A stretch of DNA of 58,073 bases from a phage: the sequence record PZ445420.1; one strand, given 5' to 3'. The notes under the pieces are model-generated. The model had not been told where the DNA came from and did not search any database. It saw only the letters and a list, made by a program, of their open reading frames with translations. Positions 4,286-56,337 of the stretch are shown one piece after another. The position numbers were made by a program, and so were the translations under genes. Positions within the stretch are counted from its first letter, which is position 1. The number at the start of each line of letters is the position of its first letter.

Positions 4286-5389
4286 ATGTCTAAAATTCTG
4301 TCAGCTCCGATGCTTAATTTGCGAGCTACCAATTCAATTCTTCTGTCTGCTGTTCGTCGTGGTGCGATCACTGAACTTGCAGATGTTATCGTTCCAGAGA
4401 TCTTCGTACCGTATGTGCAGAACCGCACGACTGAAAAGTCTCGACTGATCCAGTCTGGTGCTATTGAGATTTCTGAGCGTCTTAACGCTGCATTGATGGG
4501 TGAAGGTACTACCTTTAACCAGCGTTTCTTCAAAGACCTGGATCGTGACGAAGAAAACGTTTCAAGCGCAAGCGATGCAACCGATTCTACTCCTGGCGGT
4601 ATCAAATCCGGGCGTGAAATTCAGATCCGTCTGTCCCGTAACCATTCATGGGGTTCTGCGGACCTGCTGGACAGCTTGATCTCCCCGGACCCGCTGGATG
4701 CTATCATCAATCTGGTGGCAAGTTACCGTCAGAGCCGTCTGCAACGTGCATTCGTTGCAACTGTAGGCGGTGTGTTTGCTATGAACGCCGCTGCTCCGAC
4801 TGGTTCCGGTGATAAAAAGTCTACTCACGTTCAGAACGATATGACCCACGACATTTCTGGTTCATCCTTCGTTGATGGTGTGACTAACTTCAACCCGGCT
4901 GGTGTTATCCTGGCTGCTGGTACTATGGGTGACTCCCTGAACGAGCTGTCTATGATGATGGTACACAGTGTGGTTTACCAGCGTATGCAGCTTATGAACC
5001 TGATCGACTTCATCCCGGATGCTCGTGCTGAAGTAATGATCCCGACCTACATGGGCCGTGAAGTTATCGTTGATGATATGATGCCTCACGATGGCGGTAA
5101 GTACGAAACCTGGCTGGTTGGTCGTGGTGCATTCCAGTTAGGTGTTGGTTCACCGAAAGTTCCTGTTGAAACTGAACGTAAACCTGCGTCCTACAAAGGT
5201 GGCGGTTCTGAAATCCTGTTCCACCGCTGGGAAAACATCATTCACCCTGTCGGTCACGCATGGGTTGGTACTGCTGCTGAAGGTGGTCCAGATAACGCCG
5301 CTCTCAAGACTGCTACTAACTGGGCTCGTGTATTCCCTGAGCGTAAACAGATTAAGATTGCTCGCCTGATCACTCGCGAACACGCTTAA
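4286..5389 (+). CDS. major capsid protein
   Basis: 367-aa ORF following scaffold-like gene, followed by strong terminators; position and size typical of HK97-fold capsid protein. Confidence 0.7.
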   Translation: MSKILSAPMLNLRATNSILLSAVRRGAITELADVIVPEIFVPYVQNRTTEKSRLIQSGAIEISERLNAALMGEGTTFNQRFFKDLDRDEENVSSASDATDSTPGGIKSGREIQIRLSRNHSWGSADLLDSLISPDPLDAIINLVASYRQSRLQRAFVATVGGVFAMNAAAPTGSGDKKSTHVQNDMTHDISGSSFVDGVTNFNPAGVILAAGTMGDSLNELSMMMVHSVVYQRMQLMNLIDFIPDARAEVMIPTYMGREVIVDDMMPHDGGKYETWLVGRGAFQLGVGSPKVPVETERKPASYKGGGSEILFHRWENIIHPVGHAWVGTAAEGGPDNAALKTATNWARVFPERKQIKIARLITREHA

Positions 5390-14862: not shown

Positions 14863-15271
14863 AACTCCGGGGTGGCAGACACGTTTATTGACCACGGTAA
14901 AGGAGCTGTCGTCTACTCCTTTTTCTTGGGGTAAAAATGATTGTTGCACGTTTGCCGCAAAGTGTGTCGATGCACAATACGGAACGAATATTTATAGTGA
15001 AATAGTTGGAAAATATAGCACGGAATTAGGAAGTAAGAAATTTACAATTCAGAAAGTTGGTACAACACACCTCCCAGCTTTATTAGATATCTACTTAGGT
15101 GAAAGAATAGAAAAGAATTTTGCACAAAGAGGAGATGTTGTTACATTTGAAGGTGAGCTAGGATTAACTGCCGGTATACTATGGACTGGATTCGTATGGG
15201 CTATGGGACCGAATGGTGTTGTGACATTCCCAATTAATAAGATTAAAATCACAGATGTTTGGAGGGTTTGA
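14855..15271 (+). CDS. tail assembly protein (lambda K-like, NlpC/P60-type Cys; candidate)
   Basis: Internal ATG at 14855 overlapping stop of upstream gene; WGKNDCCTFAAKC motif; ORF track extends it upstream to 14687, probably spurious. Confidence 0.4.
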   Translation: MSKTPGWQTRLLTTVKELSSTPFSWGKNDCCTFAAKCVDAQYGTNIYSEIVGKYSTELGSKKFTIQKVGTTHLPALLDIYLGERIEKNFAQRGDVVTFEGELGLTAGILWTGFVWAMGPNGVVTFPINKIKITDVWRV

Positions 15272-17910
15272 TGCCACCAGCAATAATTGGAGCAGCAATT
15301 ACAATTGGTGCATCTGCTGCGGCAGCGGCGGGATGGATTGCGACAGGTGTAGCTTTAGCTATCGGTATGACCGCAACCGTAGCCGGCGCACTATTAACTA
15401 AGACACCAAATACAAATTTCAATGCTTATAAAGGTCAACAGGAGCGTAAACAAGTATTACGTGCCGCGGCAGCAGCCAGAACTGTCGTATATGGTACAAC
15501 TGTAGCTTCTGGAGTCATGACTTTTGCAGAAGAACAGCCCGGTGACCAAGATGAAGATGAACTTCTCCATATGGCGTTAGTTGTTGCGTCACATCCATTG
15601 GAAGGAATTGGAGATATTTGGCTTGGGGATGACCTTATTCAAACTTTCGAACAATATGTCAGCTGGGAATTTCATAACGACCGTCAAACTGTAGACCCGT
15701 TTATGCGGGACAATTGTCCTTCCTGGAAGGATGATATGATTGGTAAAGGTATTGCTTGGCTTCGTATTAGTTTCAAATTTAACGCTGAAAAATTCCCTTC
15801 TGGTTTACCAAATATCAAACTTCTAAAACGAGGACGACGTGTATATGACCCTAGATCTGGCTATACTGTGTTCAGTGATAACGCGGCATTAGTTATACTG
15901 GATTATTTCCGAACATATTTGAAACGTAGCGACGAACATATTAACTGGGAGCAGTTCAAAGAAGCTGCGAATATATGTGACGAATATGTTTCTAACGCAG
16001 ATGGTTCCACGGAGCGACGCTATAGAATCAATGGAGAATTCGAAGTAGATGAAGCACCTGCTAAAATCCTTGATGCAATGTTGCAGGCTTGCGGCGGGGA
16101 ATTGACATATATAGCCGGTAAGCACGGATTATTGGTCGGTGCATACTATGGTCCAGCAACAATGACTTTGGACGAAAGTTGTATTTCCGGTGATATTAAA
16201 ATCATCCCGGAGACATCCTATAAGGAACGAACTAACACAATCACTGGTACATTCATAGATCCTAAACAGAACTATGTTGAAGCCGACTTCCCTCCTGTTG
16301 TGGTCAAAGAATGGGTGGAAAAAGATGGTACAGAAATAACCCAGGATATGGATTTCCGATTTGTAACAAGCGAATATCAAGCCCAACGTTTATCCAATAT
16401 TATTTTACGTCGCAAACGTGTTGGTCGCACAATTGAAATTCCTTGTAACATGAAAGGTTATAAGTTTCGACCAGGAATGTATGTAAAAGTTACTATTTCT
16501 CAGATTGGAATGAAAAATGTCGAGATGCGAGTAACTAAATGGTCTTTCAACCCTAAAGGTGGAGTAGACATTACTTTACGACAAGATTTCCTGGAAATGT
16601 GGGACGATGCTATCGGTAAACCGATGGACCGCCCAGATCTTGTAGATTTACCAAGTGGCGGTGTTGCTCAACCACAAAATCTACAGTACCAGATTTTGCA
16701 GATCAGCGATGTGGTACAGGGTGTGTTATCCTGGACTAATATGGGGCAAGTGGCGTACAACCGCGTAGCCGTGCGACAGGGCGGTGTAACTATTTGGACC
16801 GCACAAGTCCCAGGACAAAGTGTTAGAGTTACTGGTCTGTTACGTGGTGCGTATACAGCGCACGTCCAAGCTGTGTCACACGGTGGGGCAATATCCCCTG
16901 AGGCTTATCTTGAATTTAATATTCAAGCTCCACCACCACCTTCTTCTGTCGAAGTACAAAACGGTTATTTTTCTTTAACACTTATTCCAAAAATTTCTGA
17001 ACTTACTAGCGTCAGCACTCAGTTCGATTTCTGGACATCAGGTGAAACAAAATTATCATCCACCAATACGGATGTCGTTGAACGAGACGCTACTCGTGAA
17101 GGTATGGGCACTGTATGGCAAAAGAACAATTTGCTCAATGACCACGTTTATTACTGGTATGTTCGCACAATCAATGCCTTCGGATCGTCTTCGTTTGTTG
17201 AAGTGGAAGCCCTGGTATGGGCGGAAACTGGGCAAATCATTGAAATCATGGATAAGGAGTTCCAGGAGACTGAAACTTTCAAAAACCTCATGGAGACTGT
17301 ACAGAAAGTCGACGATGGTGTTACAGAATTGTCTAAAGTTGTAGAAGGTCAAGCCTCCAAGATAGATTCAGTGCAGACTAGCGTTGGCGACGTTGTAGTT
17401 ACAGTTCAACAACAATCGCAAGCATTAGCAGATCTTAATGGTAAACTTTCTGCTCAATGGGGGCAAAAAGTCCAGATTGATAGTAACGGCAACAAATATG
17501 TCGCCGGTATGCAGTTAGGTATAGAAGGTAGCGGAGGTCAATTCCAATCTTATTTCATGGTGAGTGCGGATAACTTTGCTGTTTACAACCCTGTAGCTGG
17601 AGCTGCTCAACTTGCGTTTGCTATTAAAAACGGTCAGGCGTTCTTGAGAGATGGTTTTATTGAAAATGGTTCAATTACAAATGCTAAGATAGGTAATGTG
17701 ATTCAGTCCAATAACTGGAATGGGAACGATCAAGGGTGGGCAATTACAAAAGACGGTTATTGCGTATTTAATAACGTTACCGTCAGAGGGACGGTCGTTG
17801 CTAACGCTGGTCAATTTGGTTTCAACGGAAATGGAGGTATTACAATTGATAGTAATGGTATCCGCGTTCCGTTATCCGGTGGGGGTGTTGTCATAGTAGG
17901 ACGCTGGTGA
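15259..17910 (+). CDS. tail tip / central tail fibre protein (lambda J-like)
   Basis: 883-aa ORF; middle region (YFSLTLIP...FDFWTSGE...YYWYVRTINAFGSSSFVE...KYVAGMQLG) parallels lambda gpJ; Gly/Ala-rich hydrophobic N-terminus. Confidence 0.65.
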   Translation: MEGLMPPAIIGAAITIGASAAAAAGWIATGVALAIGMTATVAGALLTKTPNTNFNAYKGQQERKQVLRAAAAARTVVYGTTVASGVMTFAEEQPGDQDEDELLHMALVVASHPLEGIGDIWLGDDLIQTFEQYVSWEFHNDRQTVDPFMRDNCPSWKDDMIGKGIAWLRISFKFNAEKFPSGLPNIKLLKRGRRVYDPRSGYTVFSDNAALVILDYFRTYLKRSDEHINWEQFKEAANICDEYVSNADGSTERRYRINGEFEVDEAPAKILDAMLQACGGELTYIAGKHGLLVGAYYGPATMTLDESCISGDIKIIPETSYKERTNTITGTFIDPKQNYVEADFPPVVVKEWVEKDGTEITQDMDFRFVTSEYQAQRLSNIILRRKRVGRTIEIPCNMKGYKFRPGMYVKVTISQIGMKNVEMRVTKWSFNPKGGVDITLRQDFLEMWDDAIGKPMDRPDLVDLPSGGVAQPQNLQYQILQISDVVQGVLSWTNMGQVAYNRVAVRQGGVTIWTAQVPGQSVRVTGLLRGAYTAHVQAVSHGGAISPEAYLEFNIQAPPPPSSVEVQNGYFSLTLIPKISELTSVSTQFDFWTSGETKLSSTNTDVVERDATREGMGTVWQKNNLLNDHVYYWYVRTINAFGSSSFVEVEALVWAETGQIIEIMDKEFQETETFKNLMETVQKVDDGVTELSKVVEGQASKIDSVQTSVGDVVVTVQQQSQALADLNGKLSAQWGQKVQIDSNGNKYVAGMQLGIEGSGGQFQSYFMVSADNFAVYNPVAGAAQLAFAIKNGQAFLRDGFIENGSITNAKIGNVIQSNNWNGNDQGWAITKDGYCVFNNVTVRGTVVANAGQFGFNGNGGITIDSNGIRVPLSGGGVVIVGRW

Positions 17911-17921
17911 TCAAATATTAA

Positions 17922-17946
17922 ACGGGGCCGTGATGGCCCCGTTTTT
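17922..17946. terminator. bidirectional rho-independent terminator between convergent genes
   Basis: 8-bp stem ACGGGGCC/GGCCCCGT, 5-nt loop, T-runs on both strands. Confidence 0.6.
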
Positions 17947-18917
17947 CAATACATATTGGGTATAGCTATGAGTGGTGTTGGTACTACAACGTTACGTCCT
18001 GGTATTATCACTTGTCGTCGTGAGTAATTTCCCACTACGCGGTTTCTCGCAGCTCCTACCACATTATCCGCCATTCGAATCCCGTTCATACGAACATGAT
18101 TGTAGCCTCCATTGTTCTCAATAAGCGTACCTGTGTATGCAAGCTGTATTAAGCTGTTACCAATATTTTGCCATCCCGCGCTAAGATCTACTGTTCCGTT
18201 GAATACAAAAGGCTTCTTGACCGTGGAGAATGTAACTTGCCCAGCTCTGTTCGTCATGGTAATACCATTACCGGGCTGTGGGGGAGTGTTGTTAAATATT
18301 ACTAATTCCATTCCAACAGAAGCCGCTACGTCATCGATTCCACCATATGCTGCGTTGCGAACGATAATATTCGAACCATCAAAACCTACTGACACGTTAG
18401 GATCGTTCCAGCGAGCAAACGGAACACCACCAACAGGTAATGGCATACTACCGTTAACCCATACGTACTGGGAATACTGACAAGTCATGAGAAAGGCTGC
18501 GTTGGATATTGCTGTGAAGTCCGTGGAGTTAGCCACAAATAAACCCTCGTTTCGCGTTCCTACAGGTAGCAGTTCCATAACCACACCTGACCATTGCGGC
18601 AATCCCCTATAAGCACCAAGTGCATCTGCTCCACGCAATGTAACTCCACTATCACCGTTTCTTGTCACGGAAGTTACATACATCGGATCAGGGAGTACTA
18701 GAGTCTGGTCAAATACTTCCAATACTTCAACAGGATTAGTCATAACGACAACAACTTGTGATCCTGGTGTCAGAGGTGTATTGATAGTTAAAGTTTTATC
18801 AGATTGACAGCGTTGATTGAAGTTAGCGCAAAAGGACGGGGCGCGTAGTCCTGCTGTTATTTGCATTGCAGGTCTGCCGTCATTGTAGTTTATATAAATA
18901 CCCTCTGGCATAATCAC
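17946..18917 (-). CDS. hypothetical protein encoded antisense within tail module (Gly/Asn/Val/Thr-rich; candidate fibre, receptor-binding or exclusion protein)
   Basis: 323-aa minus-strand ORF between J-like gene and tail fibre gene; composition typical of beta-rich fibre proteins. Confidence 0.5.
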   Translation of the reverse strand: MIMPEGIYINYNDGRPAMQITAGLRAPSFCANFNQRCQSDKTLTINTPLTPGSQVVVVMTNPVEVLEVFDQTLVLPDPMYVTSVTRNGDSGVTLRGADALGAYRGLPQWSGVVMELLPVGTRNEGLFVANSTDFTAISNAAFLMTCQYSQYVWVNGSMPLPVGGVPFARWNDPNVSVGFDGSNIIVRNAAYGGIDDVAASVGMELVIFNNTPPQPGNGITMTNRAGQVTFSTVKKPFVFNGTVDLSAGWQNIGNSLIQLAYTGTLIENNGGYNHVRMNGIRMADNVVGAARNRVVGNYSRRQVIIPGRNVVVPTPLIAIPNMY

Positions 18918-19027
18918 TCCAAATAATGTGGTTAAAGACGATAGATAATATTGTTTTATATTCTAATTTAATTTACCATATTTGTATGCCCTGAAATATC
19001 TATTAATTTTACAGATAAGAGGTAAAA

Positions 19028-20929
19028 ATGACAATTCGTCTATATGGTATCCTAACAGATGGTTTGAATAAACCTATTGTTAATGCAACCGTATCCTTGA
19101 TAGCAAGAAGTAATACACTCATAGTGTTAGGTAGTAGCGAAGCGATATTCCGTACAGATTCTCAAGGTGCATATAATATCACAGTGAACCCAGGGCACTA
19201 TGTAGTTATAGTGGGCCCTCAAGGAAGAGAACCATATAAGGCTGGAGAAATTGTCCTATATGTAGATAGTCCGGATGGGTCACTTAATGGTTATCTTGTT
19301 AATTGGGTGGAAGAAGAACTAACACCAGATGTTATCAAACAAGTTCAACAACTTGTGGCTGCTTCTGAAGAATACTCTTTGCAAGCTGGCCGCTCTGCTG
19401 CGGCAGCAAACGCAGATGCTACGGATGCTCGCAATAGTAAGGCTTCAGCTGCTCAATCCGCTTCGGATGCACTTGTGTATAAAAATGATGCTAAAGCTAG
19501 TGAAGACGCTGCTAGACAAGCACAGGCGGGCGCTTCCGGTTCTGCTAACACTGCATTACAAGCTGTGACCACAATTCAAGGTCTAAAATCTGACGTTGAG
19601 CAGTTAAAAGCAGACACACAGGGTATTAAGAATAGCGCAGTAAGCGAGACGCAAGCAATTAAAGACACTGCTGTGTCCGAAACTACCGCCATAAAAGACG
19701 CCGCTGTGTCCGAAACTACTGCGCTAAAAAATGCTGCTGCTGCTTCCGCTGCACAAGCAAGTAACAGCGCTACCGAAGCGGGACAACAAGCTAGCAATGC
19801 TGCTGGTAGCGCACAAAGCGCGTCTACCGACGCTGGGCGTGCAGAAGTGGCTGCTGGAAAAGCGGAGCAGGTTATTGGGAAAGCTCTATTAAAAGAAAAT
19901 AATTTATCAGATTTAGCAGATCGTGCAGCTGCATGGCTAAATGTTCGTCCTATTGGACCTACCCCTCTTGTGAGTGACCCCGTTAAAGATTATGATGCTG
20001 TAACTAAGCGTTGGGTGGAGAATAGGATTAACACTGATACATCAACACTAAAATCCGATGTGTCAACTCTAAAATCTGACGTTGGTAACTTGAAAACACG
20101 GCAGATTGTGAATACTGATTGGACAGCACAGCGACCGCAGAATCATCAGAACAATTCGACATTCAACTTCGGACTAGGCTATAAATTAATCTCTCAAGGT
20201 ATAGATATTGATGGAAAAACATATGCTGCGTCACTGGAAATGGTGCGGATTAGATCTCACGGAATCGTAAACGCGCGTATTAATGTTGTTAACGCTGCTG
20301 GTGACTCAATATTTTACGATTTTAATGATAAGGGCGAAATTGTAATTCCACCGAGTCAAAATATTAGCGCAAGACGTTTTCGTGTCGCTAACGAAGGAAC
20401 GTCAGCAAGTGATGGTAGATTAAATATGTGGGGGAATAATACTGATCGCTTGGATGTGTTCGAGTTTGGAGTGAGTAATGGTTATATCTTCTATGCTGAG
20501 CGTCGTGCTGATGACTCCCGCGAACTACACGTAAACGGCAACATTACAGGCAACAACATTTCAACAGGGTCTGACCGTGATCTGAAGGATAATATTGAAA
20601 TTATCCACGACGCAATGGGACGCTTGCGCAAGATGTATGGCTACACATATACCCTGAAGTCCGACGGTATGCCGTATGCTGGTGTTATTGCCCAAGAAGT
20701 TATGGAAGCAGTTCCCGAAGCGATTGGTGGAATGATGGTATATAAAGGTGATAGTCGGACAGAAGGCGAGCGATTCCTGACGGTTAACTACAATGCTGTC
20801 GTTGGTCTTCTTGTTCAGGTATGTCGTGAAGCTGACGATCGCATCACTAAACTTGAGACAGAAATTGAAGATCTTAAAAAACTAGTAGCAACGCTCATTA
20901 ACGAGCAACCGGAGCAACTTCTCCCATAA
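19028..20929 (+). CDS. tail fibre protein with C-terminal intramolecular-chaperone (peptidase S74-like) domain
   Basis: 633 aa; Ala/Ser-rich repeats; C-terminal GSDRDLKDNIEII...coiled coil resembles autoproteolytic chaperone domains of phage fibres. Confidence 0.65.
   Translation: MTIRLYGILTDGLNKPIVNATVSLIARSNTLIVLGSSEAIFRTDSQGAYNITVNPGHYVVIVGPQGREPYKAGEIVLYVDSPDGSLNGYLVNWVEEELTPDVIKQVQQLVAASEEYSLQAGRSAAAANADATDARNSKASAAQSASDALVYKNDAKASEDAARQAQAGASGSANTALQAVTTIQGLKSDVEQLKADTQGIKNSAVSETQAIKDTAVSETTAIKDAAVSETTALKNAAAASAAQASNSATEAGQQASNAAGSAQSASTDAGRAEVAAGKAEQVIGKALLKENNLSDLADRAAAWLNVRPIGPTPLVSDPVKDYDAVTKRWVENRINTDTSTLKSDVSTLKSDVGNLKTRQIVNTDWTAQRPQNHQNNSTFNFGLGYKLISQGIDIDGKTYAASLEMVRIRSHGIVNARINVVNAAGDSIFYDFNDKGEIVIPPSQNISARRFRVANEGTSASDGRLNMWGNNTDRLDVFEFGVSNGYIFYAERRADDSRELHVNGNITGNNISTGSDRDLKDNIEIIHDAMGRLRKMYGYTYTLKSDGMPYAGVIAQEVMEAVPEAIGGMMVYKGDSRTEGERFLTVNYNAVVGLLVQVCREADDRITKLETEIEDLKKLVATLINEQPEQLLP
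19637..19735 (+). repeat. 3 x 33-nt in-frame tandem repeat inside tail fibre gene
   Basis: AVSETQAIKDT / AVSETTAIKDA / AVSETTALKNA; units 2 and 3 share GCTGTGTCCGAAACTAC. Confidence 0.8.
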
Positions 20930-20946
20930 CCACATCTAACCTTCGC

Positions 20947-20970
20947 AGCGCGTCTTCGGGCGCGCTTTTT
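20947..20970 (+). terminator. rho-independent terminator after tail fibre gene
   Basis: AGCGCG/CGCGCT stem around TCTTCGGG loop followed by TTTTT. Confidence 0.55.
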
Positions 20971-55600: not shown

Positions 55601-55824
55601 GTGATCCTTCTGACGCACAATTAGCGGCTGCAAGAGTGTATATGCGCGGAGCTGCCGCTGAGATTGAGGCCTTGCCACAATTCGAGAAGCACGTACAGCA
55701 ACTTGAAGATAAATTCAAGGCTCTTAAAGACTTAGGGGATAACAAGGACGCCATAGCATTTCTTTTTGCTCTTCAATACTTTGTCATGGGGTCTGATGAG
55801 AAACTATGTTCCTTAGAAGAATAA
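55597..55824 (+). CDS. hypothetical protein
   Basis: 75-aa ORF. Confidence 0.35.
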   Translation: MSDPSDAQLAAARVYMRGAAAEIEALPQFEKHVQQLEDKFKALKDLGDNKDAIAFLFALQYFVMGSDEKLCSLEE

Positions 55825-56306
55825 TTGGTATTGTTGCACCTTGGATACCACTTGTCATAATTGTTATTCTAGCCAACTGGGCTTATGACAATGCCATAGA
55901 ATCAGCTAGAAAGGAGGGTTTCGATGCCGGTGTGTCGTACCAAAAAGAAACTCAGAAAGCGGTTGATTTCGAGGAGGAGAAACGAAGAGCGTATGAGAAA
56001 GATACTATCGAACGTCAGTACAGATCTCGTATTGAATCTTTGGTTGCCGATCTTAATAATTATCGCGCTACTAATGACAGGTTGCACAACGAAATCGCAA
56101 CCGTCCGTAAGTACCTCGGTGACGCTACCGGCCCTCAGCCCGACAGCAAGACAACCGCCCAGATCGCCCGTGTGCTCACCGAGCTGTATTCAGAAAGCGT
56201 CACAGAATACAGACAAGTGGCAGAAGAGGCTGAAAAGTATCGTATTGCCGGCGAGCAGTGCGAACTACAATATGATGCAATGCGAAATCCGCGTAAAGCA
56301 AATTGA
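55806..56306 (+). CDS. i-spanin (Rz-like)
   Basis: 166 aa; N-terminal TM segment IIGIVAPWIPLVIIVILANWAY then charged coiled-coil; o-spanin-like ORF in +1 frame. Confidence 0.6.
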   Translation: MFLRRIIGIVAPWIPLVIIVILANWAYDNAIESARKEGFDAGVSYQKETQKAVDFEEEKRRAYEKDTIERQYRSRIESLVADLNNYRATNDRLHNEIATVRKYLGDATGPQPDSKTTAQIARVLTELYSESVTEYRQVAEEAEKYRIAGEQCELQYDAMRNPRKAN

Positions 56307-56337
56307 TAAACTGCAAAGTCCTTGTCGGGTTGCGTAA
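55993..56337 (+). CDS. o-spanin (Rz1-like lipoprotein) overlapping i-spanin gene
   Basis: Alternate frame; signal-like MRKIL...LPILIIIALLMTGC with lipobox Cys (codon 56083-56085) followed by Pro/Ser-rich segment. Confidence 0.55.
   Translation: MRKILSNVSTDLVLNLWLPILIIIALLMTGCTTKSQPSVSTSVTLPALSPTARQPPRSPVCSPSCIQKASQNTDKWQKRLKSIVLPASSANYNMMQCEIRVKQIDKLQSPCRVA

Follow-up and report, generated by a model that had tools for sequence, protein, structure and literature searches.

The closest solved relative of the protein described here is the receptor-binding protein (RBP) of phage Oekolampad (Bas18), whose complex with Shigella LptDE was captured by cryo-EM in the structures 9RPT, 9RPW and 9RQI (Dunbar et al., PNAS 2025, PMC12685063). 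The Oekolampad RBP can be purified as a soluble protein and binds the extracellular face of LptDE. From outside the cell, it reaches deep into the lumen of LptD, with ~1,700 square angstroms buried, makes contacts to LptD loops 3-5 and 11, where its Gln299 bonds to loop 4, and is bound to an open state of the translocon. Either of two LptD substitutions, Y671N or D352Y, is sufficient to abolish both RBP binding and infection, and the part of the RBP that faces the phage is disordered in the maps (PMC12685063). LptD-targeting RBPs share a fold of two β-sandwiches with distal loops (PMC13035648, PMC12685063); an arrangement in which a conserved base sits on J and variable loops are distal has been proposed from models (Black et al., PMC13035648).

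A "bona fide RBP module" downstream of gpJ is common to Bas01, Bas02, Bas14, Bas18, Bas19, Bas20 and Bas25, and lptD mutations block all seven phages that carry it (Maffei et al., 2021, PMC8594841). In the same study, Oekolampad/Bas18, FritzHoffmann/Bas20 and VogelGryff/Bas25 were found experimentally to depend on LptD, and lptD mutations in resistant hosts identified LptD as the terminal receptor of ChristophMerian (Bas19, MZ501057), a Nonagvirus whose nearest relative is SP8 (96.3%).

The Drexlerviridae phage Rtp also carries a gene of this family, rtp44, which follows the J homologue rtp43 in antisense orientation; a hairpin is present in the spacer between the two. In Rtp, rtp44 is preceded by the gene for Rtp45, a lipoprotein of 76 aa, which binds LptD at the periplasmic face and prevents the RBP from binding. 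The FhuA-binding pb5 of T5, considered together with the exclusion lipoprotein Llp, resembles the LptD family in being a separate monomeric RBP at the tip of the central fiber, with loops that bind an outer-membrane β-barrel, and in both the pb5 and the Oekolampad complexes the RBP is disordered on the side towards the phage. T5 differs from the LptD type in its receptor and in its exclusion, which is achieved by allostery rather than steric displacement. The C-terminal domain of λ GpJ and the LamB/TolC-type J extensions likewise mediate terminal receptor recognition at the central fiber tip, but there the specificity determinant is part of J, not a separate protein.

A predicted LptD-type RBP gene in a Nonagvirus

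The window, i.e., the whole 58,073-nt stretch of phage DNA analyzed here (PZ445420.1), has a GC content of 0.4348 and belongs to a Nonagvirus (Queuovirinae) with SP8 as its best DNA match (96.5%). Features of the locus are collected in Table 1. Between positions 1 and 20929, a single non-nested gene lies on the minus strand, all other minus-strand ORFs being nested inside plus-strand genes; the annotation of the related phage VogelGryff has the same arrangement of strands. The first-pass annotation had drawn attention to this gene as the only one on the minus strand of the rightward block, which holds for this region once nested ORFs are set aside, and had located it between a J-like tip gene and a tail fiber gene, an assignment that the Pfam domains of both neighbors confirm.

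Table 1. Coordinates of the RBP gene and its surroundings in the window.
Feature	Coordinates	Strand	Remarks
J-like tail-tip (central fiber) gene	15271..17910	+	879 aa; Phage_Tail_Tip, Ig_J_second, PHROG 31 "central tail fiber J"
Last ~50 codons of J, cassette-specific tail	17758..17910	+	Co-inherited with LptD-type RBP
GC-rich hairpin	17920..17944		AAACGGGGCC-GTGAT-GGCCCCGTTT, flanked by A-run and T-run; probable bidirectional intrinsic terminator
RBP gene, predicted LptD-binding type (DUF6453)	17946..18911	-	ATG 18909-18911, TGA 17946-17948, 321 aa
Divergent intergenic region, AT-rich	18912..19027		116 nt; RBS of the RBP gene (GGAG 18917-18920) and of the fiber gene, presumed promoters
Lateral tail fiber gene	19028..20929	+	phage_tail_N, Peptidase_S74 (intramolecular chaperone); outside the RBP cassette

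The gene had initially been described as 323 codons long. An ORF of that length is indeed present at 17946..18917 when counted from a GTG at 18917, but this GTG is not a likely start. Because GGAG at 18920-18917 precedes ATG 18911, and because a Met start at this point is common to every homologue, the RBP gene is likely to span 17946..18911 and to encode 321 aa, in a length of 966 bp that includes the stop codon. The start of J was revised in a similar way: GGAGG lies 5 nt before ATG 15271 and the alignment with VogelGryff J begins at residue 5, so J probably starts at this ATG and not at TTG 15259, the start called by the ORF finder. A plus-strand ORF at 18112..18480 (122 aa) was rejected as a shadow of the conserved minus-strand RBP frame.

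The protein encoded at 17946..18911 matches Pfam DUF6453 with an E-value of 1.4e-130 and 435.3 bits, against a curated cut-off of 25 bits, over profile positions 1-290 of 291; it also matches PHROG 1265 in a PHROG profile search. A PDB sequence search with a threshold of E <= 0.01 returned the 9RPT family only (chain C of 9RPT/9RPW/9RQI, E 9e-162, residues 2-321 aligned to 2-321) and no homology to pb5, whose resemblance to the window RBP is functional only. Identity to the Oekolampad protein (bas18_0025) is 75.4% without a gap, 79 of the 321 residues being different; it is 67% for FritzHoffmann (Bas20), 66% for VogelGryff (Bas25) and 33% for Rtp44 (E 7e-42). The protein is rich in Val (11.8%), Gly (10.3%), Asn (9.7%) and Thr (7.2%), as was noted at the outset, and its Gly, Asn and Val contents exceed those of the other structural proteins.

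Genes of this family are recognized by a length of ~930-970 bp and a position directly downstream of a gpJ homologue. A comparison of the locus among related phages, which had been proposed as a check, finds an RBP-family gene in the equivalent slot directly after J in Bas18, Bas20, Bas25, Rtp, JL1 and SA126VB. The Oekolampad locus is built like that of the window: it has a 321-aa DUF6453 protein encoded antisense between J-like and lateral fiber genes, a hairpin in the J-RBP spacer and a J C-terminal tail of the equivalent type. The two differ in their background, a Dhillonvirus with a 1148-aa J as compared to a Nonagvirus with an 879-aa J, and in the lipoprotein gene bas18_0026, which lies directly upstream of the Oekolampad RBP gene and has no counterpart in the window.

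Full-length homology, the Pfam score, the size and slot of the gene and the J tail all place the window protein in the LptD-targeting RBP family. The antisense gene thus very probably encodes the terminal RBP of a small siphovirus, predicted to be docked on the J tail and to insert its loops into LptD. The initial suggestion of a β-rich receptor-binding protein that determines host range is borne out by the DUF6453 and 9RPT homologies.

Conserved base and variable loops

Within the family, the N-terminal 30 residues and a C-terminal PxxIPNMY motif are most conserved, and the residues that differ most between the window RBP and the solved Oekolampad homologue are 237-247 and 299-309. This distribution suggests that the conserved base docks on the J tail and that the variable distal loops meet the receptor. 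By homology with the LptD-binding family, a monomeric β-sandwich RBP would attach non-covalently to the C-terminal tail of J via its conserved N-/C-terminal base, and its variable distal loops would enter, from the cell exterior, the lumen of LptD, the outer-membrane LPS translocon of the LptDE complex; the phage would thereby be committed to adsorb irreversibly and to eject its DNA.

The same pattern of substitutions could be taken to mean that an RBP of the same fold now uses another outer-membrane receptor in place of LptD. The 79 differences to the solved homologue cluster in the two loops and include a known LptD contact position, residue 299, which is Gln in Oekolampad and Arg in the window RBP; moreover, family members are present in Klebsiella phages and in Citrobacter and Intestinirhabdus prophages. 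Yet more distant members, at 66-67% identity and, among Rtp-like proteins, at 33-39%, are found in phages shown or predicted to need LptD, and the RBP allele matches LptD specificity without exception (Maffei et al., PMC8594841). We consider a change of receptor very unlikely. R299 and the altered 237-247 loop may instead mean that the binding mode of the window RBP to LptD differs in detail.

Database labels point in another direction. PHROG 1265 is labeled "membrane protein" and assigned to the moron category, JL1 gp40 is labeled a membrane protein, and the gene is antisense, with an upstream region and a terminator of its own. These features would fit a moron or membrane protein expressed apart from the virion genes and acting in exclusion or host takeover, and a moron-like or exclusion function was indeed among the first proposals. 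The protein itself contradicts this: it has a polar N-terminus, MPEGIYINYNDGR, and lacks a signal peptide, a lipobox and a hydrophobic segment, the maximum Kyte-Doolittle mean over 19 residues being 1.14. Its homologue is soluble when purified and binds LptDE from the extracellular face (PMC12685063), and in its prophage relatives the tail operon includes the gene, with J on one side and a fiber gene on the other. Exclusion is the task of a separate lipoprotein of the Rtp45 family, which the window lacks. Membership in the DUF6453 RBP family thus leaves a moron function hardly credible and takes the exclusion function away from this gene.

For an LptD-type RBP family, the labels "hypothetical protein," "membrane protein" and PHROG "moron" are out of date and misleading; RefSeq records of JL1 gp40, EK99P-1 and slur05 carry an outdated label of the "membrane protein" type. 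Host attributions in public records call for similar caution. Near-identical coliphage-type RBP or exclusion genes are filed under Aeromonas phage SD04, seven "Campylobacter" phage records and a Nitratidesulfovibrio contig, and a 257-bp contig of Dyella japonica holds a coliphage-type RBP or exclusion gene that is 98% identical. The presence of these genes under such unlikely hosts looks like contamination or misattribution.

An exchangeable cassette that includes the end of J

The C-terminal tail of J follows the RBP type. A pattern of the form ...FGFxG...I...G.xVxLxxGGxVxVGxW ends J in the window and in Bas18, Bas20, Bas25, JL1 and Rtp, and is absent in Bas17, which is of the FhuA type, and in Bas21. 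Elsewhere, window J is only ~21-40% identical to Dhillonvirus J, yet its tail is like those of Oekolampad, JL1, Rtp and FritzHoffmann. The boundary of the cassette inside the J gene is set by comparing KarlBarth (Bas17, FhuA type) with Oekolampad (LptD type): identity between their J proteins is 96.5% over residues 1-1099 and falls to 19% for the final ~50. The J of GottfriedDienst (Bas21), in which specificity is encoded in a C-terminal J extension, diverges from window J over the last ~30 residues. From this co-variation, we infer that the last ~50 J codons encode the docking site for the RBP. These ~50 codons and the RBP gene, with the hairpin that lies between them, form one exchangeable host-range cassette.

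Other cassettes occupy the same place. The FhuA-type cassette of KarlBarth resembles that of the window in its slot after J, in the J tail exchanged along with it and in a hairpin between convergent genes. In contrast to the window, a pair of unrelated genes (100 and 224 aa) runs co-directionally there, and the sole antisense gene encodes a 72-aa lipoprotein. Proteomics of the Dhillonvirus EE09 detected the 224-aa protein of the FhuA-type slot in virions; it belongs to another family than the window RBP and offers an analogy only. In GottfriedDienst, J is longer and the antisense slot holds only a 77-aa lipoprotein gene.

On its other side, the cassette borders on the divergent intergenic region, which is 100% identical to that of FritzHoffmann, as compared to 67% for the RBP and 62% for J; the first ~80 nt are conserved in VogelGryff. 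Full identity here, despite an RBP identity of 67%, marks this stretch as a putative conserved control region and sets a sharp recombination boundary of the cassette at the RBP start. A promoter scan was at chance level, with 9 sites against 9.0 expected, and did not identify the promoter of the RBP gene; among its matches is one 10/12 σ70-like site on the minus strand (19034->19006).

Since the RBP gene shares this divergent region with the lateral fiber gene, it might be asked whether its product is an assembly factor or chaperone for the neighboring fiber and not a component of the virion, in line with the fiber-accessory role that the first-pass annotation had also entertained. The lateral fiber, however, has an intramolecular chaperone of its own, Peptidase_S74, and in Rtp the lateral fiber gene is 3 kb away. 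The RBP gene varies in step with the J tail rather than with the fiber: FritzHoffmann has an identical fiber and intergenic region but a 67% identical RBP. We give a chaperone role next to no credence; by homology to the LptD-binding family, the protein would be the terminal RBP of the central tail fiber rather than an accessory of the lateral one. A terminator-like site follows the fiber gene at 20947-20966.

A conserved hairpin between convergent genes

The J and RBP genes converge, with 35 nt between their stop codons (17908-17910 and 17946-17948, respectively), and the GC-rich hairpin fills most of this spacer. It had been reported as a perfect 8-bp hairpin with T-runs on both strands; the hairpin and the T-rich tails are there, but the stem has 10 pairs, A-U pairs included, of which the 8 correspond to the G+C-rich core plus one pair. 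The tails are five T on the plus strand and TTTAATATTT on the minus strand. The two strands fold with -19.6 and -20.1 kcal/mol, with z-scores of -2.2 and -3.3. Searches of the whole window with Rfam at the gathering threshold and with ARAGORN found no RNA genes.

Much stronger evidence than such scan statistics comes from the conservation of the hairpin across related loci. The J-RBP spacer measures 20-35 nt in 11 of 11 LptD-type loci, each with a GC hairpin that has an A-run on one side and a T-run on the other. The stems differ by clade: CGGGGC(C) in Queuovirinae, GGGGCC in Dhillonvirus and GCCCC in Rtp. GottfriedDienst, with another cassette in the slot, has a hairpin with the stem CCCCTC at the equivalent site, and the annotation of SA126VB places terminators on both strands at the J-RBP spacer. 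Because the site is kept while the stems differ between clades, the hairpin is better explained as a conserved bidirectional terminator than as a chance palindrome. The bidirectional terminator proposed at first is thus plausible, and this element probably ends both convergent transcripts, that of the J operon and that of the RBP gene.

A cassette without a recognizable exclusion lipoprotein

A complete LptD module comprises the RBP and an Rtp45-type lipoprotein, and the window has only the first of the two. Tblastn with Rtp45, JL1 gp39 and Bas21_0021 returned nothing below E 0.1 in the window, and for the first two queries nothing below E 0.5. The 116 nt between the RBP and fiber genes, where an Rtp45 or SE-Oeko lipoprotein gene would precede the RBP gene, hold no ORF. 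Strict and relaxed lipobox scans of ORFs of 35-200 aa in the whole window picked up only a spanin-like ORF at 55993..56337, in the lysis region. This ORF (55993 or 56032..56337) lies out of frame inside ORF 55806..56306, an o-spanin-in-i-spanin arrangement.

The window is not alone in this respect. No Rtp45-type gene lies beside the RBP gene in SA126VB, VogelGryff, FritzHoffmann and two Queuovirinae contigs from IMG/VR, and none is present within 6 kb in the prophage-type loci. A 2026 preprint describes RBPs as "frequently" accompanied by accessory proteins; in the literature on LptD-type RBPs, we found no discussion of the absence of an exclusion gene from Queuovirinae loci. It is conceivable, although we lean against it, that RBP cassettes of Queuovirinae (this phage, FritzHoffmann, VogelGryff, SA126VB and SP8-like phages) and of prophages that have no recognizable exclusion lipoprotein do without receptor blocking, or else use a factor of an unrecognized kind encoded elsewhere. 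Leaving the receptor unblocked could be tolerated if the RBP recognizes LptDE only in a state that is rare, open and probably active.

Homologues of the LptD exclusion lipoprotein (E ~1e-7, 32-41% identity) also turn up outside siphophages, in ~77-kb phiEco32-like podoviruses (Kuravirus). In phiEco32 (NC_010324.1), the homologue lies at 4968-5249, among early genes beside tRNA-Arg, and no RBP gene is annotated near it in the 10-kb stretch viewed. Its presence may hint that LptD matters to Kuravirus phages as well.

Orientation of the RBP gene

In the first-pass annotation, antisense and hence independent transcription was taken as the sign of an accessory, moron-like gene. This does not hold across the family. 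In ~70 IMG/VR loci of the prophage type, the DUF6453 gene, at 52-55% identity, is co-directional with a ~1,060-aa J gene and follows it by a few bases, within the tail operon; an S74-chaperone fiber gene and then an integrase gene come next. Homologues in Citrobacter and Intestinirhabdus genomes fall in the same range of identity (52-55%). Because these prophage relatives carry the RBP gene co-directionally after J, antisense transcription is not essential to RBP function.

In Dhillonvirus and Drexlerviridae, the RBP gene is the second of an antisense pair, the first encoding an Rtp45-family lipoprotein of 73-76 aa; cassettes of the FhuA and J-extension types have no antisense gene other than that for the small lipoprotein. 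The simplest reading, we infer, is that the antisense unit is basically the transcription unit of the exclusion gene, with the RBP gene riding behind it in the LptD cassette. Queuovirinae would have kept the RBP gene alone, and the antisense orientation of the window RBP gene is most readily taken as a relic of an operon of exclusion lipoprotein plus RBP whose first gene is missing here. The exclusion-free reading of the Queuovirinae cassettes would likewise make this orientation a remnant of such a lost operon.

Implications

The function, receptor and structure of this RBP family are already published, and placing the window gene in it adds no new biology. Recognizing such a gene makes the receptor of a phage predictable from sequence, knowledge that already exists for the family. 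LptD is essential and highly constrained, which makes the phages that use it attractive for therapy and troublesome as laboratory contaminants. A cassette free of the exclusion gene, such as the one in this Nonagvirus appears to be, would provide a clean natural test case for the need of receptor blocking in LptD-targeting phages.
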